64,000 nt of DNA from Parcubacteria group bacterium (GTDB lineage Bacteria; Patescibacteriota; Minisyncoccia; Phycocordibacterales; UBA2135), in assembly GCA_016204005.1 (NCBI GenBank), contig JACQLS010000030.1:25952-89951 (forward strand), given 5' to 3'. The notes under the pieces were generated by a model, which saw only the letters and a program-made list of their open reading frames with translations, was not told the DNA's origin and did no database searches. Every line of letters starts with the position of its first letter. Position 1 is the first letter of the stretch. The position numbers and the translations under genes were made by a program. This document shows positions 27,491-61,672 of this stretch, one piece after another.

Positions 27491-28762
27491 ATGCAAACCT
27501 TCTTCCAAAAATTCAAATTAGCTCTCAGTGATGCAACGCTCCGAAGGAGGATTCTCTTTGTCTTGGGCGCGCTTGTTATTTTTCGCATTCTCGCTGTTGT
27601 CCCAATTCCGGGGATTGATCCAGTGCGTCTCTCAGAATTTCTTTCGAATAACCAATTTTTTGGACTCCTCAACATCTTCTCAGGAGGCGGTTTGTCCAAT
27701 CTCTCTATTGTCATGTTGGGTGTTACCCCGTACATCACGGCCTCCATTATCATGCAGCTTTTGACTGTCATGTCAGCCAAGCTTAAGGCGCTCTACCATG
27801 AGGAGGGTGAGGCGGGGCGCAAGAGGTTCATGCAGTATTCGCGCCTCATCATGGTCCCGCTCGCGGTTATTCAGGGAGTTGGATTGATCCTCATCCTTTC
27901 ACGGCAGGGTGTCGTCGAGAGTTTGGGGGGCTTTGACCTATTGACCAACGTCATTGTTATCACGGCGGGATCGGTGCTCCTCATGTGGTTGGGAGAGCTC
28001 ATATCAGAATTTGGGATCGGCAACGGTGTCTCGCTTATTATCTTTGCGGGTATCGTGGCGGCACTTCCAGCTACGGTTCAACAGCTCATCTTCACCTTTG
28101 ATGTTGCCCAAATTCCTGTGTATCTCGGGTTCTTAACTGCGGCCATTATTATTGTTGCCGGTATTATCTGGATCACGGAGGCAGAACGGCCGATTCCTGT
28201 TTCTTATGCGAAAAGAGTCCGCGGAGGACGGATGTATGGCGGTATTCAAACATATCTCCCGTTGCGTTTGAACCAAGCGGGGGGTATCCCGATCATCTTT
28301 GCGCTCTCTATTCTCCTTTTCCCGCAAATGATTGTCAACTTTCTCGTAGGGGTAGACAATACCGCCGTACTTGCTGTGGGGAGGATGCTACAAGCGTTTT
28401 TCAACAACACCGTACTCTACGCCGCTTTCTATTTCTTCCTCGTGTTTTTCTTCACGTATTTTTACACTGCGGTGACGTTTGACCCGCACTCTATTGCCAC
28501 GAATCTTCAAAAGAACGGCGCCTTTATTCCCGGTGTACGCCCCGGCAACACAACAGCGGACTACATTGCGGCGATTTTGACGCGCATCACTCTTGTTGGC
28601 GCCCTTTTCCTTGGCACTGTGGCAGTTCTCCCCGTTGTCATGCAAGGTATTACCGGCATTACTGCATTTGCGATCGGAGGCACAAGCGTCCTCATCGTCG
28701 TTGCTGTTTTACTCGATCTCGTGAAAAAGATTGACGCGCAAATAGCAATGCGAGAATACTAA
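27491..28762 (+). CDS. secY: Preprotein translocase subunit SecY
   Basis: 10-TM protein downstream of rplO; SecY consensus blocks. Confidence 0.9.
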   Translation: MQTFFQKFKLALSDATLRRRILFVLGALVIFRILAVVPIPGIDPVRLSEFLSNNQFFGLLNIFSGGGLSNLSIVMLGVTPYITASIIMQLLTVMSAKLKALYHEEGEAGRKRFMQYSRLIMVPLAVIQGVGLILILSRQGVVESLGGFDLLTNVIVITAGSVLLMWLGELISEFGIGNGVSLIIFAGIVAALPATVQQLIFTFDVAQIPVYLGFLTAAIIIVAGIIWITEAERPIPVSYAKRVRGGRMYGGIQTYLPLRLNQAGGIPIIFALSILLFPQMIVNFLVGVDNTAVLAVGRMLQAFFNNTVLYAAFYFFLVFFFTYFYTAVTFDPHSIATNLQKNGAFIPGVRPGNTTADYIAAILTRITLVGALFLGTVAVLPVVMQGITGITAFAIGGTSVLIVVAVLLDLVKKIDAQIAMREY

Positions 28763-28891
28763 AATAGTATATGGTATTTAGTATCTTGTATTTGGTATAG
28801 AAAACACACGCTCCGATGTTTTGTCCGAGCGCGTGTTTTGTTTTTGTGCGTACGTCGTATACTATATACCAAATACTAAATACTATATACT
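28763..28891. repeat. Nested palindromic intergenic element: ~34-nt imperfect terminal inverted repeats (agtatatggtatttagtat... / ...atactaaatactatatact) flanking a terminator hairpin (aaaacacacgctc...gagcgcgtgtttt + T-run)
   Basis: Read directly; MITE/REP-like architecture between secY and adk. Confidence 0.5.
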
Positions 28892-28898
28892 TTTGTTT

Positions 28899-29480
28899 AT
28901 GGACAACGCCTACATTTTTATCGGCCGTTCCGGATGCGGCAAAGGAACACAAGCAGAGCTTTTGAAAGCCTATCTTGAAAAGAAAAATCCCGGGCAAAGG
29001 GTCATATGGTTTGGCACCGGGGAACGGTTCAGGACGTTTCTTAAAGAACCTGGACATACACAGGATATTGCTCGCGGTTATGTTGAAAGAGGCAAGCTCT
29101 CCCCTGAATTCTTGGCGATTCATATCTGGTCTCATTTTTTTATTGAGGATATTGTTGGCGGCGAAAGTGTCATCTTTGACGGCACGCCAAGAAAACTGAA
29201 TGAAGCGCGTGTGCTTGACGACGCCCTCGAGTTTTATGGCGCGAAGGTTTCGGTGATTTTTATAAATGTTTCTCGAGAGTGGGCGCGAGAACGTTTGCTC
29301 GGGCGAGGAAGACAGGATGACACAGAAGAATACATTAAAAATCGACTTGATTGGTTTGAAAGTGACGTTGCAGAGACGCTGGCTTTCTATAAGGACTCAA
29401 AACATGCCTTTCTCGAGATTAATGGCGAACAGCCAATACCAAAAGTACACGAGGATATCGTGAAGCAGCTTGAAGCGTAA
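28899..29480 (+). CDS. adk: Adenylate kinase
   Basis: IFIGRSGCGKGTQAELL P-loop; start at the internal Met of track ORF 28821. Confidence 0.85.
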   Translation: MDNAYIFIGRSGCGKGTQAELLKAYLEKKNPGQRVIWFGTGERFRTFLKEPGHTQDIARGYVERGKLSPEFLAIHIWSHFFIEDIVGGESVIFDGTPRKLNEARVLDDALEFYGAKVSVIFINVSREWARERLLGRGRQDDTEEYIKNRLDWFESDVAETLAFYKDSKHAFLEINGEQPIPKVHEDIVKQLEA

Positions 29481-29490
29481 CGTATCAGTA

Positions 29491-30261
29491 ATGGCAATCT
29501 TTAGAAATGAGCAAGATATAGAGATTCTCCGAGAAGCCGGTCGCCGGCTTGCTTTTGTCGTGGGAGAGGTAGCGAAAAAAGCAGTTCCCGGAGTTTCCGA
29601 AGAAGCACTCGATCTCTACGCAGAGGAGTTAATCCTCAAGGGGGGAGACAAGCCGGCGTTTAAGGGATACCGACCTTCTGGCGCCCGCGCTCCTTACCCG
29701 TCGACGATTTGCATTCAGACGAACGATAAAGTGGTGCACGGCATTCCGACCGGCTACATCCTTAAAGAGGGCGACATCGTTGTCATAGATACCGGGCTCG
29801 AGCATAAGGGTTTCTTTACCGACATGGCAATCACCATCCCTATAGGAAAAGTCGATGCCGCCGCAAAGAAACTGATAACGACAACACGCGACGCGCTCTA
29901 CGCGGGGATCAAGGAAGCCCGTGCAGGTAATCGCCTCGGAGACATTGGCGCTTCTGTTGAAGCGGTAGTCAAGAAAACAGGATTCTCAATTGTCCCCGAG
30001 TTTGGAGGGCATGGTATCGGGAAGAAACAGCATGAGGACCCCTTTGTTGCCAATTACGGAAGAAAGAAAACCGGACCCCTTCTTGAAGAAGGCCTTGTCA
30101 TCGCCATTGAACCTATCGTCAATGAAGGTTCTCCGGAGGTGATCTTCGAAAAAGACGGCTACACCGTGCGTACCAAAGACGGAAAACGAAGCGCGCAGTT
30201 TGAACACACAATCCTTATTACCAAAGGGGATCCGGAAATCATCACAGACCTAAAAAACTAG
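29491..30261 (+). CDS. map: Methionine aminopeptidase type I
   Basis: MAIFRNEQDIEILREAGR... metal-binding D/D/H/E/E pattern; follows adk as in spc/alpha operons. Confidence 0.85.
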   Translation: MAIFRNEQDIEILREAGRRLAFVVGEVAKKAVPGVSEEALDLYAEELILKGGDKPAFKGYRPSGARAPYPSTICIQTNDKVVHGIPTGYILKEGDIVVIDTGLEHKGFFTDMAITIPIGKVDAAAKKLITTTRDALYAGIKEARAGNRLGDIGASVEAVVKKTGFSIVPEFGGHGIGKKQHEDPFVANYGRKKTGPLLEEGLVIAIEPIVNEGSPEVIFEKDGYTVRTKDGKRSAQFEHTILITKGDPEIITDLKN

Positions 30262-30311
30262 TACACATTCTCCCATCGACTATTCTGCCATCACTACGTA
30301 TACTATAAGGA

Positions 30312-33044
30312 ATGGCAGTTGAAAGAGCCCCCATCCCGCAGCCGTTTACCACACCAGATGCAGAACTCGCGTACTTGCGGGAACGTCTTCGTCTAAAAGA
30401 GCGCGAGCTTGAGACCCGTGGTGAGAGAGATGCTTTAGCGAGAGCTGCAACGGAAACAGTGCAGGAACACGCCGCCCGATCTCCCGAAGAAGTACTTCCA
30501 AAAGAACAAGTGCTCCCCAAGGAGGAAGCTGAAGCTATAGCACTCAATCTTTCACCAGAGAAGCATGATGATCGCATGGGCGAGTTCCTCGGACTCCTTC
30601 AAGAGCGGGGTATTAAAAATGCCCTTTCGGTTATTGAGTCACTCAAGAGTCCTCATCTTGCAGACGATTTTCATCGTTTTTTGATTGCATATGTGAAAGG
30701 AGGGCATTCTGTCTATGGGTTGAAAGAGCGCGGAGAGTTATGGAAGTCACTGCGAATGACGCTCTACGAAGTTTTCTTGCCAGAAGCTGTGAAAGAAGAA
30801 CTTAAGGGGAAGACACTCAAAGAACTCCTCTCTTCTATGGAGCAGTTCTTCGCGGGAATGGCATCTATTTCCGACGTTTCCCCTGATACTACACGCCACT
30901 GGAGCGCTGAGTTGGCGCTCGCAGAGTCTGGGTCGGAAGTTGTTTTTTATGTTGCTGTTCCTGACACAAAGAAAGATCTTTTTGAAAAACAACTTCTTTC
31001 TGTCTTTCCTAAGGCAGAACTTTACGAACAAAAAGATGACTTCAACATCTTTAACGAGGGGGGGATTGCCGTTGGTGCTGTTGGGACATTTAAGCGGGAG
31101 GCGATTCTTCCCCTCAAGACATACGACACCTTTGACTACGATCCTTTGAATATCGTTCTCAACACGTTTTCAAAACTGGCAAAAGACGGAGAAGGCGCGG
31201 CGATACAATTTGTTTTTGAAGCAACGCCCAACTCACTCGTTGGAGACTATCGGAAGACATTGGAAAAAGTAGAGAAGGGAGCGTCACTCAAAGATGCCTA
31301 CGGCGGATCCTTCACCAAGGAGTTCATCAAGGCTTTTGGCGGCATCATGGGCGACAGTCCAAGTAAGGAGAAAGAGAAGCACGTTGATACCGCGGTTGTT
31401 GAGGCGATCCGCGCGAAAATCGCCGCGCCAATCATAAAAGCAAACATTCGCTTAATAGCTGGAGCTGCCGATTCCGCACGGGCGAAAGAAATTTTGAGTG
31501 ATATGGTGTCCGCATTTCGACAATTTGAAAATACGACAGGAAACACCCTTGTTTTTAAAGAAATGGAAGGCGGCAAAAAAGATGTCCTCTTGAAGTCATT
31601 TTCATACCGCTTATTTAACGAGAGCGAATCATTACCCTTGAACCTCCGTGAGGCGACGACTTTGATGCATCTCCCGTCGGCGGGTATTGAATCATCCCCG
31701 CACTTGAAGCAGGCGAAGAGCGGTGGAGCTCCAGCCCCCGTCGCGCTTCCCACAAGCGGCACCCTCTTGGGAGTGAACCACTATAGGAACACCGAAACAA
31801 AAGTATACCTTACGAAAGAAGACCGACTACGACACTTCTACGTCATCGGTCAGACGGGTACAGGAAAGACGACATTATTGAAAAATATGATCGTGCAGGA
31901 CATCCAAGATGGCGACGGTGTCTGCATGATTGACCCCCACGGCACGGACATTCAAGATGTCCTGGGGCTTATTCCCGATCATCGGAAGGAAGACGTCATC
32001 TATTTCGACCCGAGCAATTTGAATCGCGTCATGGGGCTTAACATGCTCGAGTATGACCCACGTTTTCCAGAGCAGAAGACCTTTGTTGTCAACGAGCTTT
32101 TTAGCATTTTCCAAAAGCTCTATGGGGCGGTACCGGAGTCTATGGGGCCCATGTTCGAACAGTACTTCAGAAATGCGACACTCCTTGTTCTTGAGGACCC
32201 TGAATCGGGGAATACACTCCTAGATGTGTCACGCGTGCTCTCGGACGCTACCTTCCGAAAAGCAAAACTTTCGAAATCCAAAAATCCCGTGATCAATCAG
32301 TTCTGGGAGGAAATCGCGGAGAAAACAGGCGGAGAAGCGGCGCTTTCAAACATCGTTCCCTACATCACGAGCAAATTCGACATCTTCACCGCGAACGACT
32401 TTATGCGACCAATCATTGCCCAGTCGAAATCGTCCTTCAACTTCCGCGAGATCATGGACTCTCGAAAGATTCTTCTTGTCAATCTTGCGAAGGGCCGGCT
32501 TGGAGCAATCAACTCGAACCTCCTCGGTCTCATTATTGTCGGAAAGATCCTCATGTCGGCCCTTTCGCGTGTCGACATCGTCGGGAAGGGTGAGGTGGCG
32601 CCGTTTTATCTCTACATCGATGAGTTCCAAAACGTCACGACAGATTCCATCTCAACTATTCTCTCTGAAGCTCGCAAGTATAAGCTTTCGCTCACCGTTG
32701 CCCACCAGTTCATTGCTCAACTCGAGGAAGGTATTCGCAACGCAGTCTTTGGAAACGTTGGTTCAATGGCCGCTTTCCGTGTAGGACCGGAAGATGCCGA
32801 ATTTCTAAAGCAGCAATTTACTCCGATTTTTGGAGCCAACGACCTCATGAATATCGACAATTTCAACGCGTACGTGCGCTTACTCGCGAACGGCCGTCCA
32901 GCGAAGCCGTTTAATATTCGCATTCCTCCGAAGCCGGAAGGCAACCCTGCCCAAGCTGAAGTACTAAAAGAGCTCTCCTCGCTCAAATATGGGCGACCGC
33001 GGGAAGACGTTGAGACCGAGATCGCCACTCGCTACAGCCTTTGA
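30312..33044 (+). CDS. Large soluble P-loop ATPase with a C-terminal VirD4/TrwB/TraD-like (type IV coupling protein-like) NTP-binding domain and a ~470-aa N-terminal domain of unknown function; no TM segments
   Basis: RHFYVIGQTGTGKTT (Walker A), IDPHG, LYIDEFQN (Walker B) and VAHQFIAQL (T4CP Q-motif, compare TrwB GLQSTSQL); 910 aa. Confidence 0.6.
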   Translation: MAVERAPIPQPFTTPDAELAYLRERLRLKERELETRGERDALARAATETVQEHAARSPEEVLPKEQVLPKEEAEAIALNLSPEKHDDRMGEFLGLLQERGIKNALSVIESLKSPHLADDFHRFLIAYVKGGHSVYGLKERGELWKSLRMTLYEVFLPEAVKEELKGKTLKELLSSMEQFFAGMASISDVSPDTTRHWSAELALAESGSEVVFYVAVPDTKKDLFEKQLLSVFPKAELYEQKDDFNIFNEGGIAVGAVGTFKREAILPLKTYDTFDYDPLNIVLNTFSKLAKDGEGAAIQFVFEATPNSLVGDYRKTLEKVEKGASLKDAYGGSFTKEFIKAFGGIMGDSPSKEKEKHVDTAVVEAIRAKIAAPIIKANIRLIAGAADSARAKEILSDMVSAFRQFENTTGNTLVFKEMEGGKKDVLLKSFSYRLFNESESLPLNLREATTLMHLPSAGIESSPHLKQAKSGGAPAPVALPTSGTLLGVNHYRNTETKVYLTKEDRLRHFYVIGQTGTGKTTLLKNMIVQDIQDGDGVCMIDPHGTDIQDVLGLIPDHRKEDVIYFDPSNLNRVMGLNMLEYDPRFPEQKTFVVNELFSIFQKLYGAVPESMGPMFEQYFRNATLLVLEDPESGNTLLDVSRVLSDATFRKAKLSKSKNPVINQFWEEIAEKTGGEAALSNIVPYITSKFDIFTANDFMRPIIAQSKSSFNFREIMDSRKILLVNLAKGRLGAINSNLLGLIIVGKILMSALSRVDIVGKGEVAPFYLYIDEFQNVTTDSISTILSEARKYKLSLTVAHQFIAQLEEGIRNAVFGNVGSMAAFRVGPEDAEFLKQQFTPIFGANDLMNIDNFNAYVRLLANGRPAKPFNIRIPPKPEGNPAQAEVLKELSSLKYGRPREDVETEIATRYSL

Positions 33045-33086: not shown

Positions 33087-35435
33087 ATGGCAAACTTCGA
33101 AAGACCAATGAGTACTGGAGGAGCTGAAGGTGCCCCCGAAGCACCACGTCAGGCAACTCGGGCAGAAAAAGCGAAGCTTACGCGGCAGATAAACATACTT
33201 GAGCGTCAATTGGAGAAACTCGCACACGAGGACAGGGAGCAGCCCGGAGCACAAGCGGAGCGCGAGAGAATCGGTGCCGAGCGAAACAGGCTTTGGGATT
33301 TGCGGAATCAGATGGATACGGAAGTTGCCTCCTCTGAAGCGGTATTTCCAAACGTACCCATGGGCGAAGGAACTTTTGATGAAGCCGAGAGTGCGCCCCA
33401 AGAAATGCGCGTTGCTGGGGAGACGTACGAAGATACACCCCCTCCTACTCCCGAAACGCTTCGCCCTGACACGCAAGAAAAAGCAGAAGAGCCCAAGGCG
33501 CACTTCTCTTACAAATGGACTGGCCGTAGGACGGGAGAGCCGGGAGAGGCCGAAGAAATAGCAAGAGAGGAAGCGGAGCGCGAGGAAAAGTTAAGGGCTT
33601 TAGGCAAAAAGACCCCCCAAAAAAACAAGGGGGATATTCCCGTGAGGCAGGAACCTTCAGAACCGGTTGTGTGGGATAGTTCAAAGACAACAGGGAGAAG
33701 GACAAAGGGAGAAGAAGCAATTGATAGCAGAGTAACGGCATTCAAAAAAAAGATTCGTGGTATTGCAGATGGTACGATCCCCGTACCTCTTGCGGGAGAA
33801 ACTCCCGCAAGAGAAACACTCACTGCGGAAGAGGAGCCAACTCCTCTCTATGATGCCGCTGTCAGGGAGGGGTATATCAAAGAGGAACTGAAACCGCGCA
33901 GGAGACGCCAAGCGCTCGTTACACCCAAAGCAGATGCGGAGTTTCCAGGAGAAGTGAGCGAAGCAGAAAGACGGCACCTAGAAGAGCTTGGCCGCATGAC
34001 GCCATGGACGGGTGAAGAGTCTCCCGAAGTCGGAAGAGAAATGACCCCAGAGGAGCAAGGAAGGCGATTAGAGGAATGGTTGGGCGAAATGCAGAACTCC
34101 ATTAGGGCTGAAGCAGAAAGGAAAAGCCTCTGGCAGTATATGAGAGGAGCTTCAGAACGTTATGCGAAACTTCCTTTCTATCAAAAAATTGCTGTTGGAC
34201 TCGCTCTTACAGCAGGTGTTGGAAGTGGAGCACTTCTTGGTGGTCCCGCAGGGCTCGCAATCACGGCGGGTGCAATGGGTGCAAAACTTGGTGTTGGTTT
34301 TCTCACATTCCTTGGCACATACGAAGCTGTCGAGTCGTTGGCGGAACGGTCAAGGGAGAGACAAGTAAAGTTTTGGAACAAATACCCTAGAGTTCTTGGC
34401 GCTGTTGCCGGAGCAATCACGGGGGGCATTTCAGCGTACAGTATCGGGCAGGCTCTTGAATGGGTGGCGGACAATTTCGCATCCAGCGCTACCGAAGGTG
34501 CAGCGCGCGTTGCTGTCGAGGCAGCCGACCGGGGAGGCCAAGTAGTGGCAGAAGTCAGACCGGGCCTCGTAGAACCAAAGGTAGTAACTCCGGAGATGCC
34601 TCCTGCGTCAGATTATGCAGAGGGGTCGGGTGTATATGCCGTTGGAGGAGAAGTGGGTTCCCAAGAAAGTGTTGTCCAGATTGGCGCCGAAGCCGCGCGC
34701 ACTATTACAGCAGAAGTTGCGAAGGGTGACACTGTGTGGGGGCTCTTGAAGAACGGATTAGGAGAGAAGCTCGCAGGGCTTTCCCCAGAACAGCAAACCT
34801 ACGTCATTGATGGGCTCAAAGACAAACTTGCGGCGATGACTCCGGCAGAATTGAAGGACCTCGGTATTAAGAGCGGCAACATTGATCGCATCTTCCCTGG
34901 GCAAAAGCTTGATTTCACGTCTCTCCTTGGGGATTCTTCTCTTGTTGAGAAACTTAAAGCTGGAGCAGAAAACCTTACCGCAGAACAGCTACAGAATATC
35001 CGAGAGGGAGGAGTTGCACTACCCCCCACTCCATTAGCTGAGGCGATGGAGGCGCCTACCGTTGAACAAGCAGCCGAGGTTTTGGAAAAGGGGGCTGAAG
35101 TAGTCGTGAATGAAGAGGCTGGATCCGTGGAACACATGGGCACAGAGGTTTTCTTTGATAAGTCGGCAGCGAACATCTATGAGCAAGGCAACGGCGAGCT
35201 CATAGCTTGGGGCGGCACGGATGATGCAAAAGCGGCGCTTGCGGAACGTATTGCGGGGGAAACGGGGAAGCAAGTGCGTGTGGACGCTTCCATGGGTTCT
35301 TACTATGTAACCCCGGAGGGTTCGCGTGTTTCAATAGAAGAAACATTTAAAAGTTTTGGTGATTGGTGGAGTCGCCTTTGGGGGAACATGCCGGAGCCTG
35401 AAGGAGTGGCCACCATGCTTACGCGTAATAAATAG
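33087..35435 (+). CDS. Large acidic protein (782 aa) with E/R-rich N-terminal region, central glycine-zipper hydrophobic segments and a C-proximal LysM-like peptidoglycan-binding motif
   Basis: GDTVWGLLKNGL...IDRIFPGQKLDF (LysM signature); GLALTAGVGSGALLGGPAGLAITAGAMGAKLGVGFL glycine zipper. Confidence 0.5.
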   Translation: MANFERPMSTGGAEGAPEAPRQATRAEKAKLTRQINILERQLEKLAHEDREQPGAQAERERIGAERNRLWDLRNQMDTEVASSEAVFPNVPMGEGTFDEAESAPQEMRVAGETYEDTPPPTPETLRPDTQEKAEEPKAHFSYKWTGRRTGEPGEAEEIAREEAEREEKLRALGKKTPQKNKGDIPVRQEPSEPVVWDSSKTTGRRTKGEEAIDSRVTAFKKKIRGIADGTIPVPLAGETPARETLTAEEEPTPLYDAAVREGYIKEELKPRRRRQALVTPKADAEFPGEVSEAERRHLEELGRMTPWTGEESPEVGREMTPEEQGRRLEEWLGEMQNSIRAEAERKSLWQYMRGASERYAKLPFYQKIAVGLALTAGVGSGALLGGPAGLAITAGAMGAKLGVGFLTFLGTYEAVESLAERSRERQVKFWNKYPRVLGAVAGAITGGISAYSIGQALEWVADNFASSATEGAARVAVEAADRGGQVVAEVRPGLVEPKVVTPEMPPASDYAEGSGVYAVGGEVGSQESVVQIGAEAARTITAEVAKGDTVWGLLKNGLGEKLAGLSPEQQTYVIDGLKDKLAAMTPAELKDLGIKSGNIDRIFPGQKLDFTSLLGDSSLVEKLKAGAENLTAEQLQNIREGGVALPPTPLAEAMEAPTVEQAAEVLEKGAEVVVNEEAGSVEHMGTEVFFDKSAANIYEQGNGELIAWGGTDDAKAALAERIAGETGKQVRVDASMGSYYVTPEGSRVSIEETFKSFGDWWSRLWGNMPEPEGVATMLTRNK

Positions 35436-35488: not shown

Positions 35489-35806
35489 ATGGCACTGCTC
35501 CAAAGTAATCTCCAGAGTAAAATTGCGACCGAACTCGGCGTTGGCAATCTTCCCCCAGAAAGTCAAAAACGCATTATTGCACGACTCGGAGAAATCATCC
35601 TCCAGCGCGCAACAATGAACATTCTGGACGTACTCCCAGAAGAAAAACGCGGTGAGTTTGGCAAACTTGCGGCAGGCGATGACCAGTCGGCAGTAGAAGC
35701 TTTTTTGAAACAATTTGTGCCAAATGCGGACGAACTGGTAAACGCCGCGATTAAGCAAGAAGTGGAAGCGTTCAAGGGGTTTAAGGCACAACTTGCCGCG
35801 AGCTAG
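35489..35806 (+). CDS. Hypothetical small protein (105 aa)
   Basis: ORF only; no recognisable domain. Confidence 0.4.
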   Translation: MALLQSNLQSKIATELGVGNLPPESQKRIIARLGEIILQRATMNILDVLPEEKRGEFGKLAAGDDQSAVEAFLKQFVPNADELVNAAIKQEVEAFKGFKAQLAAS

Positions 35807-35839: not shown

Positions 35840-36652
35840 GTGGAATCATCCGCTCTAACTTTGTTTAGTATGAAAGATTCTTTCGAGAAACCATCACAAC
35901 AAGAGGTTGATCCTGATCGGGAACCTTACCCCGAAATCGAGGAGCTCAAGGATCCCCTTGAGAATATCTTCAACCAACTCGCCGAAGGCATCGAGAACGG
36001 CGAATGGTATGACCTCATTGTCGGCGATGATGCCTCGGGCCGCATCCCGACCCTTATTGTTGCTGGAGTGCTTAAAGAAATCGCAGAAGCCCGCGGACTT
36101 GAAAAACCGGATATGCTCTTTTTTGCGGGGGTGAAAGACGTAGCGCTTAAAAAGAAGCGAAAGAGAGAAATTGTGGAGGTACTAAAACAACATGAGAAAT
36201 GGAGTGGAACGGCGCACAAACGAGCGCTTTTGGTTACTGACACCATCGCTTCGGGAGAGACAATCAGAGACATTACTGACGCGTTAAAGGAGCAAGATAT
36301 TTTCTTTAAAATCATTACAATAGGCACCACTTTTGGAGTTCCCAAGACCGAGGAGCAGGTGAAGGAGTCTCGTGAATATATATTAGGAGGCAAGATCATC
36401 TCTGGCATGCGTGGTACCCCTAAAATTTACCAGATGCATACTTATGGTGGTGTGCAAAAGGAGGACAAAGCGAGCATTCATGCTTTGCCGATAAGAACAG
36501 CCTTATCGCAGACGGGGAGTGATTATCCTCCAAACAGCTTCCAAAAAAACATCAACGAAGCCCGCGCCGACAGCAAAGAAATCGCCCACGAAATCGCGGA
36601 GAAGTATTTAGCAGAACACCCCCAAAAAGCTACGGGGAGAAAAGCGGCGTAA
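35840..36652 (+). CDS. Phosphoribosyltransferase (PRTase type I fold)-like protein
   Basis: YDLIVGDDASGRIPTLIVAGVL and LLVTDTIASGETIRDI resemble the PRPP-binding loop (hhhhDDhhxTGxT, here D-T variant). Confidence 0.45.
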   Translation: MESSALTLFSMKDSFEKPSQQEVDPDREPYPEIEELKDPLENIFNQLAEGIENGEWYDLIVGDDASGRIPTLIVAGVLKEIAEARGLEKPDMLFFAGVKDVALKKKRKREIVEVLKQHEKWSGTAHKRALLVTDTIASGETIRDITDALKEQDIFFKIITIGTTFGVPKTEEQVKESREYILGGKIISGMRGTPKIYQMHTYGGVQKEDKASIHALPIRTALSQTGSDYPPNSFQKNINEARADSKEIAHEIAEKYLAEHPQKATGRKAA

Positions 36653-36664
36653 CCATACTATACT

Positions 36665-37648
36665 ATGATTTGGAATCCACACGAAGGTCGCGGATCTAAT
36701 GATCGCTTAGACCAAATAATGCGCGAGAAGCGCAAGGCGCGTCTGGAACAAGAAGCGGCGGCGGAGGAGGCTCGTGTCTTAGAGCTTGCATCTGAAAAGG
36801 CCGAGAAGAGGCTCACGGAAGATCAGATTGATTTTACAAACCCGGAGTTTCGAGGAGTTTTTACTGATGCGGCAGTAGAAAAAGATATGCAATACCTCGC
36901 AAGAGTCGAAGCGGCCATCAAAGAAGGTGAAACAGAAAGGAGCCGGGACACATTTCGCCTCGCGAGAATTCTCGAAGCAATCATTCACGAGCAAACAGAG
37001 CTTGCCAACTGGCTTGGGTCTGGTGCTACTACCATTAAGACTTCACGGCTCGACGATATTGCCAATGGCGTGGATGAGGTGGTGGAGTTTAGAAAAGATG
37101 AAGGTCACACGGCGCACCTTGGTCTTGGTATTGACGTAACGCTCGGCACCCACTTTCTTGGACAGAAGTTTGAAAGGATCAGAAAGGAAATTGAGAGTGG
37201 GAAGCTTGCACAGGTGAGATACTTCAAATCAAGTGATGGGAGCTTCGTCGGAACATTACCACTCTTGCCTCGCGTTATTGTTGGGGCTGAACGGCGGCAC
37301 ATCACAGAGCTTGCGCGGCTTTGGGTGAACAATAAAAATAAAGAACTTGCGGAACATCCGTTTAAAAAAGTTTTGATTGCAGAGATCATTGAGCAGCTCA
37401 GAGCCTTTAGAGAATATGCCCGTTTTGAGGCTATGAGGCAGACTCAACCAGCTGAAAGAGAGAGAAGGGAGGGGGTGATTCGGGCATATGAACGGGCGCT
37501 CCTCATTGCCGAAGGAGTAAAGCGGGGGGAGAAAGCGGCCCTCTCGAAATTGCCTGAAGGAAGCCGTGACGCGGAGTGGGGCAATAACGACCGTGTCCTC
37601 CTCGCCATCCGCCAAGAACTCAAGTCGTTTGGAGCGGGGGTGAGTTAA
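36665..37648 (+). CDS. Hypothetical protein (327 aa)
   Basis: ORF only; charged N-terminus; no recognisable domain. Confidence 0.4.
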   Translation: MIWNPHEGRGSNDRLDQIMREKRKARLEQEAAAEEARVLELASEKAEKRLTEDQIDFTNPEFRGVFTDAAVEKDMQYLARVEAAIKEGETERSRDTFRLARILEAIIHEQTELANWLGSGATTIKTSRLDDIANGVDEVVEFRKDEGHTAHLGLGIDVTLGTHFLGQKFERIRKEIESGKLAQVRYFKSSDGSFVGTLPLLPRVIVGAERRHITELARLWVNNKNKELAEHPFKKVLIAEIIEQLRAFREYARFEAMRQTQPAERERREGVIRAYERALLIAEGVKRGEKAALSKLPEGSRDAEWGNNDRVLLAIRQELKSFGAGVS

Positions 37649-37694: not shown

Positions 37695-38294
37695 ATGTCA
37701 GATTATAAAAAGTTCAAAGAGGAGAGAACATTTGTTTTAATTAAGCCTGACGGCGTTCGCAAGGGGCTTACCGGGGAAATTATCAAGCGTTTTGAACAGC
37801 GGGATTTGAAGATCGTTGCCCTCGAGATGTTCCAGCCTACAAGGAAGCAGATCGACGATCACTACCCAAAGGAACAGAAGTGGGTTACGCGGTTGGGTGA
37901 AAAATCTCTTTCCACTTATAGCAAATACGGCATTGATCCGGCGAAAGAACTCGGCACCAATGATGCTGCAAAAATTGGGGAGATGGTGCGAGAGTGGCTC
38001 GTTGACTACATGACTTCGGCACCGCTTGTACGCATGGTCGTAGAAGGCGTGCATGCCGTTGATATGGTCAGGAAAATTGCCGGTCCCACCATACCCTCTA
38101 TGGCGGACATGGGAACTATTCGCGGCGACTTTTCGGCCGACTCTCCGGCTATCGCGAATACGGAAAAGCGGGCAGTCATGAACCTGATTCATGCTTCTGA
38201 AACCCCAGAAGAAGCGATGCACGAGATAAAGCATTGGTTTGGCGAGAAACCGCCCATATTCTCCTACAGTCGTTTTTGCATTGATCTCTGGTAG
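37695..38294 (+). CDS. ndk: Nucleoside diphosphate kinase (with internal insertion)
   Basis: ERTFVLIKPDGVRKGLTGEIIKRFE and NLIHASET (active-site His). Confidence 0.8.
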   Translation: MSDYKKFKEERTFVLIKPDGVRKGLTGEIIKRFEQRDLKIVALEMFQPTRKQIDDHYPKEQKWVTRLGEKSLSTYSKYGIDPAKELGTNDAAKIGEMVREWLVDYMTSAPLVRMVVEGVHAVDMVRKIAGPTIPSMADMGTIRGDFSADSPAIANTEKRAVMNLIHASETPEEAMHEIKHWFGEKPPIFSYSRFCIDLW

Positions 38295-38522: not shown

Positions 38523-38927
38523 ATGTTTCGTCATCCCTTTTTCTACTTCCTCTTCTGTCTCCTCATCGTCATTACGGCTATGCATGTTTTTGGTATTATG
38601 TATTTTTGGTATGCCACGTATCCACTCCTTGATCTCGTCTTACATTTTGTTGGCGGTTTCTGGATTGCCGGTATAAGTTTATGGATCTTCTTTTTATCAG
38701 GGGCTTCGCGAGCTTCCTATAAGCAGAAAATACCCAAGGTCCATGTTGTCTTGGGTGTCCTCTTCTTCACCGTAATGATAGGGGCACTGTGGGAAATATT
38801 TGAAGTCATAAACGATATAACGCTCCGAGGATACCCAAAATACGAGTTCGATACGATAACCGATCTTATCGCTGACTCGATGGGGGCCCTCCTTGCTGGC
38901 TGGTATTTTGTCCGACGATATTTGTAA
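38523..38927 (+). CDS. Small integral membrane protein (4 TM), unknown function
   Basis: Hydrophobic segments; no CrcB motif; no other domain recognised. Confidence 0.45.
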   Translation: MFRHPFFYFLFCLLIVITAMHVFGIMYFWYATYPLLDLVLHFVGGFWIAGISLWIFFLSGASRASYKQKIPKVHVVLGVLFFTVMIGALWEIFEVINDITLRGYPKYEFDTITDLIADSMGALLAGWYFVRRYL

Positions 38928-38949
38928 CAGTTCAAAAGCTAGTATCTTA

Positions 38950-40314
38950 ATGAGCAAAGCCAAACTTACATTTTGCGGGGGAGCAGGGGAGGTGACCGGT
39001 TCAAATTTCCTCTTGGAGACCGACGAGGCGAGCGTGCTCGTTGATTGCGGTTTGTTTGAGGGATGCGACACCTGTGGCGACAAAAATGTAGATCCGTTTC
39101 CATACGACCCGAAAAAGATCGATGCCTTGTTTGTGACTCACCCACACGTTGACCACGTAGGGAGGATCCCGAAGCTTGTGAAAGAGGGTTTTCGGGGCAC
39201 AATCTACTCCACTCCGCCCACCAGAGATATTGTCGAGGTTGTCTATGACGACGCACTCAAAATCATGAGAGAAGAAACAGCGAGGACGGGAGCACCACTT
39301 TTATACGGACCGGAAGATGTTACGCAAACACTCGCCTTGTGGGAGACCAGAGAGTATCGGAAAACCTTTGTTGTAAAAGGCCTCACGGCTTCATTTAAAA
39401 ACTCAGGGCATGTTTTAGGTTCTGCGATGGTGGAGCTTGAACGCGGTGGAAAAAAGATCGTCTTTACGGGGGACCTCGGTAACTTCCCATCGCCACTCTT
39501 ACCCGACCCCGATGCGGTGAATGACGCGGACTATCTCGTTATGGAGAGCGTATACGGTGATCGAAACCACGAGGCACGGGATGAGCGCCGTTCTGCGTTG
39601 GAAGATATTATTGAGGAGACATCTCGGAAGAAGGGCGTGCTCATGATTCCAGCCTTTTCTCTTGAGCGCACACAAGCTGTCCTTTACGAAATAGAGCACA
39701 TGGTTGAGGGGCGACAGATCCCACGCATGCCCGTTTTCATTGATTCGCCGCTTGCGATTAAGATTACAGACATTTACAAAAAATATTCATCGACCTACTT
39801 CAATAAAAGTGTGGGGATGGAGTCAAAAGGCGGCAACGGCATTTTTGCATTTGCTGAACTCTCTTTCACAAGGACTTCCGAAGAATCAAAGCACATCCTC
39901 GCTGTTCCGGAGCCGAAAATTATCATTGCGGGAGGAGGTATGTCCGAAGGGGGGCGCATTATCTTCCATGAAAAGCATTATCTGCCTCAACCTAAAAACA
40001 CCCTCCTTATTTTAGGATATCAAGCACCAGGTACCCGCGGCCGTGAAATAGAAGACGGCGCAAAGACCATAGAGATACTCGGGGAAGAGATACCTGTTAA
40101 TGCTCGTATTCGCACTATCAGCGGCTATTCTGCGCACATGGACTCCGAGCATCTCCTTGAGTTTGCGGCGAACGACGCAGATGCGGCAAAAACAATCTTT
40201 GTTGTTATGGGAGAACCCAAGTCAGCTTTCTTCCTGACCCAACGAATACGCGATTATGTAGGGCTCAACGCAGTTGCTCCACAGCGTGGTGACACGTTCC
40301 CTCTAGATTTTTAG
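38950..40314 (+). CDS. MBL-fold beta-CASP family metallo-hydrolase (RNase J / CPSF-like ribonuclease)
   Basis: HPHVDHVGRIP (HxHxDH) plus downstream beta-CASP motifs; start at the internal Met of track ORF 38893. Confidence 0.65.
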   Translation: MSKAKLTFCGGAGEVTGSNFLLETDEASVLVDCGLFEGCDTCGDKNVDPFPYDPKKIDALFVTHPHVDHVGRIPKLVKEGFRGTIYSTPPTRDIVEVVYDDALKIMREETARTGAPLLYGPEDVTQTLALWETREYRKTFVVKGLTASFKNSGHVLGSAMVELERGGKKIVFTGDLGNFPSPLLPDPDAVNDADYLVMESVYGDRNHEARDERRSALEDIIEETSRKKGVLMIPAFSLERTQAVLYEIEHMVEGRQIPRMPVFIDSPLAIKITDIYKKYSSTYFNKSVGMESKGGNGIFAFAELSFTRTSEESKHILAVPEPKIIIAGGGMSEGGRIIFHEKHYLPQPKNTLLILGYQAPGTRGREIEDGAKTIEILGEEIPVNARIRTISGYSAHMDSEHLLEFAANDADAAKTIFVVMGEPKSAFFLTQRIRDYVGLNAVAPQRGDTFPLDF

Positions 40315-46440: not shown

Positions 46441-46825
46441 GGGGATGATCGGCTTCGACAAGGGGCGTACTTTGAAACGCGCAGGTAGAGCTGGGATAAC
46501 TCTTAAAAAGGCCCCAAACCATAAGTGCAAACAAATTGCGCTCAATCGTTTCGCCTTACTTTAAGGCGAGCGACTTCGTGTTCGTATACGCTTAAGCGGC
46601 GAACGTGAACGCTCCCACTTTTAATTTCTGGTAGAGAGACGGGAGTGTCATACCACCAGGATAGGCATGCAGATTGCTTCGACTGCTCCGCTGAAACCAA
46701 GAAGCTCGATGCAGTTCGGTTTTGTATGTTTCAGACGCTCTGCATTTAAATCAAAAAACACACTACACCTGTAGATCCGTTTCAATTTTCTCTTTGCATG
46801 CGGGTTCAATTCCCGCCATCTCCAT
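46441..46825 (+). ncRNA. ssrA: tmRNA (transfer-messenger RNA), standard one-piece
   Basis: 5' end GGGGAUGAUCGGCUUCGACAAGGGG matches the tmRNA 5' consensus. 3' end GCGGGTTCAATTCCCGC-CATCTCC-A gives the T-arm plus acceptor 3' strand. The acceptor pairs GGGGAUG/CAUCUCC with a G3:U wobble (alanine identity). It sits immediately downstream of smpB. Confidence 0.85.
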
Positions 46826-57828: not shown

Positions 57829-57901
57829 GTGCCCGTAGCTCAATGGTTAGAGCACAGAGCTTATACCTCTGCGGTTCCTGGTTCGAGTCCAGGCGGGCAC
57901 A
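57829..57901 (+). tRNA. tRNA with anticodon UAU (reads AUA; tRNA-Ile2-like)
   Basis: Cloverleaf traced by hand. Acceptor GTGCCCG/CGGGCAC with discriminator A; D-arm GCTC-AATGGTTA-GAGC. Anticodon arm CAGAG-CTTATAC-CTCTG with U33 and A37. T-arm CCTGG-TTCGAGT-CCAGG. No encoded CCA. Confidence 0.75.
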
Positions 57902-59173: not shown

Positions 59174-61672
59174 ATGTCCCTTGTTCTCTCTAAAAAATTG
59201 TCAGCCCTCACGATCTTTTTCGCAGGGCTCTTTATGAGTTTGTCTCTTGTTGCTACCGCTCTCGCGGCGACACAAGACTCCTCGATTTCTTTGAAGAAAG
59301 ACCCCAGCTCTGGACTTTTCGTCCTTACTGTGAGAGACCCGGACGGCATTCAGGAGTTCTCTCTTAAGCCAGTTAGGGGGTCTTCTTATGGTGGCGGGCT
59401 AGGTAGCTGTCCTCGGACTTTCACGAGCGACAATGTCGCTGTCTTCACCGACCTCTCTTTTGATCCGGCAATGCCAGCTTTTGTCATTGACTGTAATAAC
59501 AACACAACCGAACTTGAAATCGGCGCTCTTAAAAATGGGTTCACCTCAAGCAGCATTGTGAAGAAAGAAACGCCAGTCACGGAGTCCGTCGATGCAGCCA
59601 CCACACCAACATCCACGAAACAAGAAGAAAAGGAAGAAGACGAGAGTTCCCTCGGGAACGTAACATTTCCCGTGCCGGAACTGGGCAACTGCAAGAGTGA
59701 GAATGATTGCCGGTCCTATTGCGATAACGCCGATCATGCTAAGGAGTGCCTCACCTTTGCTAAGAAGCACAACCTTATCTCCGAAGAAGAAGCTGAAGAG
59801 GCGGCCGACAAGTTTTTGAATGTTAAAAATGGCCCAGGGGGATGCGATTCATGGTCTTCCTGCGAATCATATTGCAGCAGCATTGACCGTTTGGACGAAT
59901 GTATTTCGTTTGCCGAGAAATCAGGGCACTCAAATGAAAAGATAGCAGAAGCAAAAAAGATTCAGGCCTTAGTCAAAAGTGGCAAGCAATTTCCGGGTGG
60001 TTGCAAAGATCGAAACTCATGCGAGCTGTATTGTGCAGACGTAACACACATGGAAGAGTGTATTGCCTTTGCCGAAGATGCTGGTTTTATGCCGGAAGAG
60101 GAGTTGAGGCAAGCAAAGAAGATTCTACCATTGATGAAGCGTGGCGAAATGCCGGGCGGATGCACCTCCAAGGAACAGTGCGAGAAATACTGTGAAGCCG
60201 AAACCCACTTTGAAGAATGTATCGCTTTTGCCGAAAAGGCAGACCTTCTTTCTGGTGAAGAAAAAGAGATGTTGAGAAAGACGGGCGGGAAGGGGCCTGG
60301 CGGTTGTAAGGGCAAAAAACAATGCGAGGCATATTGCGAGACCAACTCAGAAGCGTGTTTCAACTGGGCGAAAGAAAATGGTGTTTTGAAAGAAGAAGAT
60401 CTTGCAAAAATGCGCGAGGGAATGACACGCTTCCGCGACGAACTCGATAAGATGCCTCCGGAGGTTGTATCTTGTCTCAAACAGAACATGGGCGAGGAAA
60501 ACTTCACAAAGATGTCGAGTGGCGAGCCTGTGTTCGACCGCTCTCTTGAGGGCAAAATGAAATCATGCTTCGGCGCCATAACCAAACAAGTAAGCAGCCA
60601 ACTGCACTCTCTGCCACCAGAAGCAGCCGAGTGTATCAAGAACACTATAGGAGAAGACGGCCTCTCGAAGCTTCAAAGCGGAGAGTTTGATCCCACCACC
60701 ACCGATTTTGGTAGTTTGGAGACCTGTTTCCAAAAGATACAGGAGTCATTCGGTGGTCCAGGAGGTTTGGGAGGGCCAGGCGGTTGCAAATCTAAGGAAG
60801 AATGTCAGGCGTATTGTGAATCTAACCAAGAAGAGTGCAAAGGCTTCAGCCCTTCAGGTGGCGGCGGTTTCTCGGGAGGGGGATCAGGTGGCTTCTCCGG
60901 TCCAGGCGGGTGCCATTCAATAGATGAATGCACCGCGTATTGTGAAGGCAATCCCGAAAAGTGCCAAAACTTCGGACCTTCAGGTGGCGGCGGGTTTCCG
61001 GGTGGTCCCGACGGCGGATTCCCTGGCGATGGGGCGACCAGAGAACAATTCCCCGGCGGTGGAGCAACGGGCGGCGGGTTTCCGGGAGGACCAGGCGGGT
61101 GCACCAGCCAAGAAGAGTGCAGGGTGTACTGTGAAAAAAATCCAAGAGAATGCCAAGGGTTTACTCCTCCCGGTGGAGGTCCTGCCTACCAAAACGAGTC
61201 GCAGATAAGGCATGATGGAGGAGCCGAAGAATGCGCAAAGCGGGGCGGCAAATTTGATGGTAGTACGTGTGTCTTTCCCGAGAGGTCTATAGACGGAAGG
61301 AATACATCGATATGCCCCTCTATGCCTACTGTTGATTCCTGTCCCTCTGGACAAGAGAAGGTCGTGACCTTCAAGTCGAGTGAGTGTGGTGAATATTACG
61401 GATGTAAACCGGCATCCAATACAGAAGTGACTAATCCCAGCTCCGGTTACGAGCAACAATACAAAGAAGAATACCAGAGACAATACGAAGAGCAGTACAA
61501 ATTACAGTATCAACCACAGTATCAGCCGCCACCAGCACCATATCCGGACAGCGGTACATACCAACCGCCAACTACTGCACCGCAAGAGGGCGAGACGCGC
61601 CTGTATCAAGCTCCTGAGGGCTCACTCGGAGCAAATGTTCGAGCAATCTTAAGCGGCCTTGCTCATAAGTAG
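59174..61672 (+). CDS. Secreted protein (signal peptide) built from 8 tandem copies of a four-cysteine module (PGGC-x5-C-x2-YC-x6-7-EC), with Gly-rich linkers and a C-terminal Q/Y/P-rich tail
   Basis: Repeats read directly, e.g. GPGGCDSWSSCESYCSSIDRLDEC, FPGGCKDRNSCELYCADVTHMEEC, GPGGCKSKEECQAYCESNQEEC, GPGGCTSQEECRVYCEKNPREC. N-terminal hydrophobic signal MSLVLSKKLSALTIFFAGLFMSLSLVATALAA. Confidence 0.6.
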   Translation: MSLVLSKKLSALTIFFAGLFMSLSLVATALAATQDSSISLKKDPSSGLFVLTVRDPDGIQEFSLKPVRGSSYGGGLGSCPRTFTSDNVAVFTDLSFDPAMPAFVIDCNNNTTELEIGALKNGFTSSSIVKKETPVTESVDAATTPTSTKQEEKEEDESSLGNVTFPVPELGNCKSENDCRSYCDNADHAKECLTFAKKHNLISEEEAEEAADKFLNVKNGPGGCDSWSSCESYCSSIDRLDECISFAEKSGHSNEKIAEAKKIQALVKSGKQFPGGCKDRNSCELYCADVTHMEECIAFAEDAGFMPEEELRQAKKILPLMKRGEMPGGCTSKEQCEKYCEAETHFEECIAFAEKADLLSGEEKEMLRKTGGKGPGGCKGKKQCEAYCETNSEACFNWAKENGVLKEEDLAKMREGMTRFRDELDKMPPEVVSCLKQNMGEENFTKMSSGEPVFDRSLEGKMKSCFGAITKQVSSQLHSLPPEAAECIKNTIGEDGLSKLQSGEFDPTTTDFGSLETCFQKIQESFGGPGGLGGPGGCKSKEECQAYCESNQEECKGFSPSGGGGFSGGGSGGFSGPGGCHSIDECTAYCEGNPEKCQNFGPSGGGGFPGGPDGGFPGDGATREQFPGGGATGGGFPGGPGGCTSQEECRVYCEKNPRECQGFTPPGGGPAYQNESQIRHDGGAEECAKRGGKFDGSTCVFPERSIDGRNTSICPSMPTVDSCPSGQEKVVTFKSSECGEYYGCKPASNTEVTNPSSGYEQQYKEEYQRQYEEQYKLQYQPQYQPPPAPYPDSGTYQPPTTAPQEGETRLYQAPEGSLGANVRAILSGLAHK

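Follow-up and report, generated by a model that had tools for sequence, protein, structure and literature searches.

A predicted coupling-protein-type ATPase with a DUF8128 domain and no membrane anchor, encoded at the end of a ribosomal-protein operon in a Parcubacteria genome

The ATPases most similar to the one described here belong to type IV secretion systems (T4SSs). Type IV coupling proteins (T4CPs), such as TrwB of R388, VirD4, TraD, and TraG, combine Walker A, Walker B, and HQ motifs with a nucleotide-binding fold that carries an inserted all-α domain, and are membrane anchored at the N terminus; VirB4 ATPases (TrwK of R388; PDB 7O43/8RTD) have a two-domain layout and no transmembrane (TM) domain of their own. 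We analyzed a gene at positions 30312-33044 (+) of a 64-kb stretch, hereafter "the window," of contig JACQLS010000030.1 from a Parcubacteria group bacterium (assembly GCA_016204005.1). Its product shares with T4CPs the three motifs and, in prediction, the nucleotide-binding fold with its all-α insertion; shorter relatives of the protein also share the N-terminal membrane anchor, as a single predicted helix. It differs from T4CPs in having no TM domain, in that the ATPase domain is preceded by DUF8128 (∼320 residues) and a fused adaptor of 135 residues, and in its linkage: in the window and at 84 related loci (±10 kb), it is associated with neither relaxase nor mating-pair-formation genes, and its operon is a chromosomal, housekeeping one. 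It is only about 16% identical to TrwB. Its predicted two-domain layout and its size resemble those of VirB4, and it likewise has no TM domain; the whole model finds its best fold match in TrwK, which is also the sole significant match for the N-terminal 480 residues. However, it lacks VirB4 sequence signatures (profile similarity is confined to the P-loop), its C-terminal domain is of the T4CP type, and it does not lie beside virB3, virB6, or virB8.

Orphan VirD4 homologues have been reported in Patescibacteria. A survey of 3,035 genomes (Quinonero-Coronel et al. 2025, PMC12102498) found VirB4 in 2,417, usually near dnaA, and 5,713 VirD4 homologues in 2,918, of which only 148 lay near virB4; t4cp genes were commonly far from virB4. 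The window ATPase is very probably among the homologues counted there; it comes from the same phylum and, like nearly all of them, is chromosomal and distant from virB4. Absent from the survey are several features reported below: the DUF8128 architecture, the adaptor fusion, the exchange of TM helix for adaptor, and the synteny with the ribosomal operon. A study of Ca. Southlakia reported no recognizable coupling protein within the T4SS cluster (PMC10633639). A first-pass annotation of the window, made from the sequence alone, called an orphan soluble ATPase of this kind unusual; in Patescibacteria, it is the rule.

Gene architecture and class of the C-terminal ATPase

The open reading frame (ORF) at 30312-33044 (+) starts with ATG and encodes 910 residues; no other long ORF occupies this place, and in an alignment the start codon was consistent with the N termini of 60 homologues. 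The product is 100% identical to an NCBI protein named [quoted passage not shown] (MAG, metagenome-assembled genome). A full-length AlphaFold2 model had a mean predicted local distance difference test score (pLDDT) of 80. We divide the gene as follows.

30312..33044, + strand: whole gene, DUF8128 plus coupling-protein-type ATPase, long anchor-less form (ORF and translation, 100%-identical NCBI protein, AlphaFold2 model)
30312..30716, + strand: N-terminal extension (NTE), residues 1-135, six-helix charged module (models; stand-alone homologues)
30729..31676, + strand: DUF8128 core, residues 140-455, α/β domain (PF26449 annotation; N-terminal model)
31761..32069, + strand: nucleotide-binding domain part 1, residues 484-586, with Walker A GQTGTGKT at 31848-31871 and IDPHG at 31929-31943
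32070..32459, + strand: all-α domain inserted in the nucleotide-binding domain, residues 587-716 (model; TrwB_AAD_bind and T4SS-DNA_transf matches)
32460..32936, + strand: nucleotide-binding domain part 2, residues 717-875, with Walker B YLYIDEFQ at 32607-32630 and AHQFIAQL at 32700-32723
32946..33035, + strand: C-terminal helix pair, residues 879-908 (model)

The stretch RHFYVIGQTGTGKTT (residues 507-521) contains the Walker A motif at residues 513-520; IDPHG follows at residues 540-544, the Walker B motif at residues 766-773, and AHQFIAQL at residues 797-804. Across a 61-sequence family alignment, we found no variation at G513-K519, D541-G544, D770-N774, H798, or Q799. The coupling-protein motifs that the first-pass annotation had quoted for the C-terminal half are thus all present, and with Walker A, Walker B, and HQ motifs kept, the protein is predicted to be a catalytically intact ATPase. 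That annotation was also right about the absence of an N-terminal anchor: a Kyte-Doolittle scan with 19-residue windows found nothing hydrophobic before residue 730, and the sole windows reaching ≥1.6 (residues 730-758) correspond in the model to a helix of the ATPase domain ahead of the Walker B strand. Its description of the N-terminal ∼470 residues as highly charged needs toning down: aspartate and glutamate make up 15.7% of residues 1-470 and lysine and arginine 13.4%, so that charge is present, not extreme.

Family models placed the C-terminal half with coupling proteins, as first proposed. T4SS-DNA_transf (32 bits; residues 500-807), TraG-D_C (28.5 bits; residues 764-833), and TrwB_AAD_bind (23.8 bits) all scored above their Pfam gathering cutoffs and together cover residues 490-835; in a short-form relative, the TrwB_AAD_bind match ran over profile positions 12-288 of 387. 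DUF87 was also above its cutoff, limited to residues 492-578, and the best NCBIfam matches were the TraD, CD1115, and TrbC models. HerA_C (13.7 bits) and FtsK_SpoIIIE (15.2 bits) stayed below cutoff and were restricted to residues 493-544, so the protein differs from HerA and FtsK-SpoIIIE translocases in having no match to their family-specific domains (HAS barrel and HerA_C; FtsK α, β, and γ) beyond the P-loop. The VirB4 model TIGR00929 (19.5 bits) also fell short of its cutoff and touched the P-loop only, and the Pfam scan of the protein returned neither PF03135 (CagE_TrbE_VirB) nor PF19044 (P-loop_TraG). A hidden Markov model (HMM) of the C-terminal domain gave 24.7 bits for TrwB versus 1.7 for TrwK/VirB4 and 0.3 for F TraC, and TrwB was the single PDB sequence matched by the family profile.

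The predicted structure agrees with this placement. Its RecA-like core is split by ∼130 helical residues (587-716) at the site of the TrwB all-α domain; the insertion comprises eight consecutive helices between strands at residues 562-565 and 720-724. Foldseek aligned the model to TrwBΔN70 over ∼420 columns, with a target-normalized TM-score of 0.62 to 0.66 and an E value of about 2e-10. An all-α insertion like that of coupling proteins is therefore present in the model. From sequence and model together, we conclude that the C-terminal half is an ATPase of the coupling-protein class (VirD4/TrwB/TraD) and not of the HerA, FtsK, or VirB4 type; because the family-model matches do not place the domain with HerA, FtsK, or AAA_10, the grouping that would have undone the original assignment was not found.

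Some relatives of the C-terminal domain outside Patescibacteria are nearer to it than TrwB is (30 to 35% identity). They are carried by plasmids of Alphaproteobacteria, Actinobacteria, and haloarchaea; the majority of these plasmids are non-mobilizable. The closest is WP_247904195.1, a 708-residue protein without a TM domain encoded on the non-mobilizable Bradyrhizobium plasmid p131_1 (L087:7074-9200) among CHAT-protease and TPR genes. It belongs to the same ATPase sub-clade, as does PADLOC mad8, with 33 to 35% identity in the C-terminal ATPase and a score of 284 bits on our C-terminal-domain HMM compared with 25 for TrwB; it, too, has an N-terminal domain of ∼320 residues, but this domain is unrelated to DUF8128, and such plasmid proteins lie in patchy, island-like contexts, not in a conserved core operon. 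The p131_1 ATPase may be a defense-island relative of the same clade. These closer plasmid relatives and the mad8 match mean that TM-less orphans of this sub-clade are not unique to the present genome; they also occur in other phyla, on non-mobilizable plasmids.

DUF8128, the N-terminal module, and the missing anchor

The N-terminal half, first taken for a large, novel, and unassigned domain, is catalogued: precomputed Pfam annotation assigns PF26449 (DUF8128) to the identical NCBI protein and to all 120 of its listed homologues. It consists of two parts, a fused small-protein module and an α/β domain. A model of residues 1-480, based on natural N-terminal fragments (pLDDT 84.8; predicted template modeling score, 0.77), shows a helical module at residues 15-129 followed by an α/β domain at residues 149-451 with a disordered loop at residues 333-350. 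Within the NTE, the motif GIKNALSV...PHxxDDFHRFL (residues 100-124) is conserved, and H115, D119, and R122 do not vary among the 61 aligned sequences. Invariant residues of DUF8128, in both the long and short forms described below, are E200, E225, F247, D277, Q299, G323, K369, R380, and R433.

The family occurs in two forms. The long form, to which the window protein belongs, has about 900 to 970 residues and no TM segment. The short form (about 790 to 870 residues) is 45 to 48% identical to it across residues 125-910 and lacks the first ∼135 residues; in their place, directly ahead of the DUF8128 start (LxMxLFEVxLP), it has one strongly hydrophobic helix, followed by a Lys/Arg cluster in the examples that we read. 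Thirteen more short forms with an N-terminal hydrophobic helix were present among the top 150 representatives. At 10 short-form loci, a separate ORF of 125 to 156 residues directly precedes the ATPase gene on the same strand and aligns to residues 1-135 of the long form; it has in common with the NTE the motif G[IV]xxA[IL]xV...P[HY]xxD[DE]xH[DR]xL, and in L077 and L080 it was detected independently of the model (E values of 5e-12 and 3.5e-9). These alignments indicate that the long form most likely arose when the small gene became fused to that of the ATPase and the TM helix was lost. The missing anchor thus looks like a derived, lineage-specific trait of an otherwise membrane-anchored family, because relatives with 45 to 48% identity keep one N-terminal TM helix at the position of the fused module. 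As is commonly argued for gene fusions, the ATPase and the small protein are predicted to interact in lineages where they remain split.

As to the fold of DUF8128, a Foldseek search of the PDB with the model of residues 1-480, a comparison that the first-pass annotation had recommended, returned as its only significant matches 14 chains of R388 TrwK/VirB4 (E values of 3.4e-5 to 2.3e-3 over ∼400 to 430 columns; next matches, E > 0.03). With the full-length model, TrwK was again the best PDB match, ahead of TrwB (E = 5.7e-16; ∼900 columns). The models therefore suggest a fold for DUF8128 like that of the VirB4 N-terminal domain. A corresponding link in sequence was sought and rejected. When full-length and N-terminal profiles were compared by hhalign to a 36-sequence alignment of MPF_T VirB4, they aligned at the P-loop alone (83% probability; 93 columns, all around Walker A), and comparison of a 151-sequence DUF8128 core profile to the TrwK N-terminal profile gave a probability of 0.2%. 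Searching PDB sequences with the family profile at E values up to 10 yielded only noise for VirB4. With hhalign and profile matches to VirB4 limited to the P-loop, homology of DUF8128 and VirB4 lacks sequence support.

Full-text literature searches returned no paper mentioning DUF8128 and none pairing DUF87 with the Candidate Phyla Radiation. The architecture, the fused adaptor that replaces the anchor, the predicted VirB4-like fold of the middle domain, and the conserved gene order where the ribosomal operon ends appear to be undescribed.

Distribution, synteny, and genomic setting

The ATPase is widespread and conserved. Its best 120 homologues are 54 to 87% identical over their full length, and a scan in which each species was represented by a single genome yielded at least 600 matching loci, with identity within the family of 45 to 60%; the best 80 of these were all from Patescibacteria-type MAGs. 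Residues 1-480 alone, searched against 1.84 billion representative proteins, matched 981 clusters at 50% identity (E ≤ 1e-3), and the N-terminal half had no match when searched against plasmids. NCBI names within the family include "TraM recognition domain-containing protein."

We surveyed the neighborhoods of 84 related loci, with flanks of ±10 kb. In 20 to 26 of them, the order was ribosomal operon-secY-adk-map-(0 to 2 variable genes)-ATPase-(0 to 4 variable genes)-ndk-DUF2238-β-CASP; ndk (26 of 84) and the β-CASP gene (25 of 84) lay at a fixed distance downstream of the ATPase. The remaining loci had housekeeping or envelope neighbors, including uvrB, tgt, truB, ruvX, and pilM; at some, we read GtrA-like and glycosyltransferase-39-like neighbors from motifs by eye, without Pfam confirmation. 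All-against-all clustering of 1,501 flanking ORFs, in search of a conserved partner gene, revealed no T4SS-like or universal neighbor. We conclude that the gene belongs to the chromosomal core of Paceibacteria/Parcubacteria, is inherited vertically, and is not part of a mobile element; a mobile-element origin was rejected on the lack of plasmid matches to the N-terminal half, the flat composition (G+C across the gene is level with its flanks), and the housekeeping synteny.

Nor was a VirB4-like or other superfamily ATPase found beside the gene at the 84 loci, with one exception: in a Nomurabacteria MAG, a second T4CP-like paralogue (L044:4-1203, +) lies ∼9 kb upstream of the DUF8128-type gene. 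Incomplete at the locus edge, it has an ATPase C terminus 52% identical to that of the DUF8128 type, then a CxxC...CxxC zinc ribbon and a long K/E-rich tail. This second paralogue fits the approximately two VirD4 homologues per genome in PMC12102498. Separately, we noted a family of ∼570 residues with no Pfam match in six loci (L027, L029, L030, L038, L039, and L044), each of which has a single copy or up to three in tandem, in most of these loci between adk and map (for example, L027:5720-7474 and L027:7441-9162).

In the window, the surroundings of the ATPase gene, assigned by Pfam except where stated, follow the main synteny type.

27491-28762, + strand: secY, at the end of the ribosomal-protein super-operon
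28821-29480, + strand: adk
29470-30261, + strand: map, the last conserved gene upstream of the ATPase
33087-35435, + strand: fast-evolving 782-residue protein with Gly-rich TM segments, directly downstream of the ATPase
35489-35806, + strand: 105-residue DUF5663 protein, the second gene downstream
35840-36652, + strand: lineage-specific gene with a sub-threshold match (16 bits) to the phosphoribosyl pyrophosphate loop of phosphoribosyltransferases
36665-37648, + strand: lineage-specific gene with no match
37695-38294, + strand: ndk
38523-38927, + strand: DUF2238-like membrane protein
38893-40314, + strand: β-CASP/RMMBL ribonuclease-type hydrolase

The genes at 35840-36652 and 36665-37648 form an insertion between the ATPase unit and ndk. 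Promoter and terminator scans gave no excess over shuffled expectation, and we did not count a promoter-like site at 30276-30304 as evidence. Pfam scans of ∼45 ORFs across the window found no VirB4, VirB6, or relaxase; the families matched are housekeeping or otherwise unrelated to T4SSs (arginyl-tRNA synthetase, FtsH, peptidase M13, CorA, ClpP, a two-component system, thymidylate synthase/dihydrofolate reductase, and others). A six-frame scan of the window with HMMs of the ATPase family and of MPF_T VirB4 detected neither a second copy of the ATPase nor a VirB4. The initial observation that relaxase, VirB4, and other T4SS genes are missing nearby therefore holds within the 64 kb.

The order of ATPase, large variable protein, and DUF5663-type protein of ∼100 residues recurs in L019, L037, L054, L061, and L066; L033 and L040 have a large protein after the ATPase without the DUF5663-type gene. 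These large proteins (782 to 1,202 residues) evolve very fast, and most have at least one predicted TM segment. Several are linked by weak but significant similarity, the 782-residue protein of the window being weakly related to its counterparts in L037 and L061. It has a single homologue among 5.8 billion proteins, at 62% identity, compared with 87% for the ATPase in the same pair of genomes. Its N-terminal half is acidic and probably disordered; Gly-rich hydrophobic segments at residues ∼365 to 460 and a LysM-like stretch (GDTVWGLL...IFPGQKL) are also present. From this recurrence, we infer that the ATPase, the large protein, and the DUF5663 gene may form one functional unit; that the 782-residue protein might be the membrane dock of the anchor-less ATPase is speculation.

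Elsewhere in the window, we noted four features outside this neighborhood. A gene at 111-1391 (+) encodes an indoleamine 2,3-dioxygenase family protein (Pfam IDO; 202 bits), an unexpected enzyme for so reduced a genome. The tmRNA gene at 46441-46824 (+) encodes a tag peptide, ANKLRSIVSPYFKASDFVFVYA, that exceeds the typical tag length and lacks the usual ALAA end. Directly 3′ of ftsH lies a tRNA-Ile gene (57829-57901, +) with the anticodon TAT (UAU), an uncommon bacterial solution for reading AUA, for which a lysidine-modified CAU anticodon is usual. At 59174-61672 (+), neither Pfam nor PADLOC matches an 832-residue secreted protein with a signal peptide; its sequence comprises some nine cysteine-rich repeats (PGGC.S.E.C..YC......EC..FA), linkers rich in glycine, and a tail rich in Q, Y, and P.

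Proposed role and competing explanations

We propose that the protein is a P-loop translocase of the T4CP class, predicted to form a ring, and that it may serve as the separately encoded coupling ATPase of the Patescibacteria T4SS. A hexamer would sit at the cytoplasmic face of the membrane, where the adaptor and DUF8128 modules, in place of a TM helix of its own, would dock it onto a membrane partner; ATP hydrolysis would then drive a polymer substrate, either nucleic acid or unfolded protein, into a channel. The likeliest channel would be the MPF_FATA-like T4SS that most Patescibacteria possess, encoded elsewhere near dnaA. Taken as a whole, that is, a core-gene translocase docked by its modules and serving the T4SS, we give the proposal about an even chance of being correct.

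Several observations weigh against it or against parts of it. No T4SS component adjoins the ATPase, either in the window or at the 84 related loci. In Patescibacteria, VirD4 homologues are more common than VirB4 (96% versus 80% of genomes), and the VirD4 homologue of Ca. Southlakia, the sole one tested genetically, is dispensable while the T4SS is essential (PMC12102498); this surplus and this dispensability suit a T4SS-independent role at least equally well. As for the VirB4-like fold, the match of DUF8128 to TrwK was made by Foldseek alone, with a query-normalized TM-score of only 0.31 and a root mean square deviation of 8 to 10 Å, and the HMM and profile-profile comparisons in which we sought the link found nothing outside the P-loop.

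The alternative that we take most seriously, although it is clearly less probable than service to the T4SS, is that the ATPase is an exapted housekeeping motor that translocates nucleic acid for the cell's own economy, independently of any T4SS; it might take in or process host-derived DNA or RNA, which the salvage enzymes encoded nearby would break down and re-phosphorylate, or it might act on the chromosome. The survey authors themselves raised exaptation of VirD4 homologues as a possibility, and the survey's finding that these homologues occur in more genomes than VirB4 favors such a role (PMC12102498), as does the fact that, at the 84 loci, the gene is never beside T4SS genes and always in housekeeping operons. 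In the main synteny type, adk precedes it, and ndk and a β-CASP RNase-type hydrolase follow; the window has in addition the inserted gene with the sub-threshold phosphoribosyltransferase match. In a 2026 preprint (10.64898/2026.06.21.733656), a cultured Patescibacteria member is reported to feed on RNA from its host, and salvage of nucleotides is described as central to the phylum. The neighborhood and the preprint lend this alternative some color, of a non-specific kind. However, adjacency to adk and map carries little information because both are standard members of the spc operon; linkage to ndk and β-CASP is confined to long-form lineages, short-form loci having cell-envelope neighbors instead; no channel such as ComEC is linked; and the preprint credits uptake to T4SS-like pili and is silent on the DUF8128 ATPase (10.64898/2026.06.21.733656). 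The boldest version, that of a near-universal, T4SS-independent machine importing host nucleic acid for salvage, encoded alongside adk, ndk, and an RNase-J-like hydrolase, in which DUF8128 would link the VirB4 and VirD4 architectures (TM helix, VirB4-like N-terminal domain, VirD4-like ATPase), seems to us improbable.

It is also quite unlikely that the protein is a divergent second VirB4-type ATPase, peripheral to the membrane and powering assembly of the T4SS or pilus instead of recruiting substrates. The Foldseek matches described above (TrwK/VirB4 over ∼900 columns of the full-length model at E = 5.7e-16, and nothing but TrwK for the N-terminal model), the size, and the two-domain layout are all VirB4-like, and the short form with its one TM helix may resemble known VirB3-VirB4 fusions. 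Against this stand the lack of CagE_TrbE_VirB or P-loop_TraG matches beyond the P-loop, the hhalign results (93 columns at Walker A; 0.2% for the N-terminal domains), and a C-terminal domain that matches TraG-D_C and has the predicted all-α insertion of coupling proteins; moreover, Patescibacteria already own a distinct VirB4 clade encoded near dnaA (PMC12102498). A part in anti-phage defense, as the ATPase subunit of a system like MADS or the HerA-containing ones, was suggested by the PADLOC mad8 match (45.6 bits; E = 1.6e-12; residues 507-832), by weak HerA matches, and by the location of the Bradyrhizobium relative among CHAT-protease and TPR genes. We consider it very unlikely: 45 to 60% identity across at least 600 species and a fixed housekeeping synteny contrast with the patchy spread typical of defense genes, no methyltransferase, nuclease, or other defense partner adjoins the ATPase, and no neighbor matches PADLOC. 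We rejected the defense reading of the mad8 match, judging it to reflect shared ATPase ancestry only. Finally, a T4CP-type ATPase domain without partners nearby could be the orphaned, decaying remnant of an integrated conjugative element, yet the reading frame is unbroken, its catalytic motifs are invariant, a close relative is 87% identical, conservation is deep and extends to synteny, composition is that of the flanks, and among the ORFs scanned we saw no integrase, relaxase, or repeat boundary. The conservation data effectively refute this explanation, to which we attach almost no probability.

Patescibacteria represent a large share of bacterial diversity, cannot make nucleotides, and depend on hosts via envelope machines that are poorly understood. 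Identity of 45 to 60% across hundreds of species, a location in the region of the ribosomal-protein operon, and the spread of VirD4 homologues, which exceeds that of VirB4 (PMC12102498), make the ATPase a strong candidate for a central step in moving macromolecules. The alternation between a TM helix with a separate adaptor and a fused adaptor yields a concrete prediction of a protein-protein interaction and provides a handle on the docking partner. If DUF8128 does have a VirB4-like fold, the family would also bear on how the VirB4 and VirD4 ATPases diverged.

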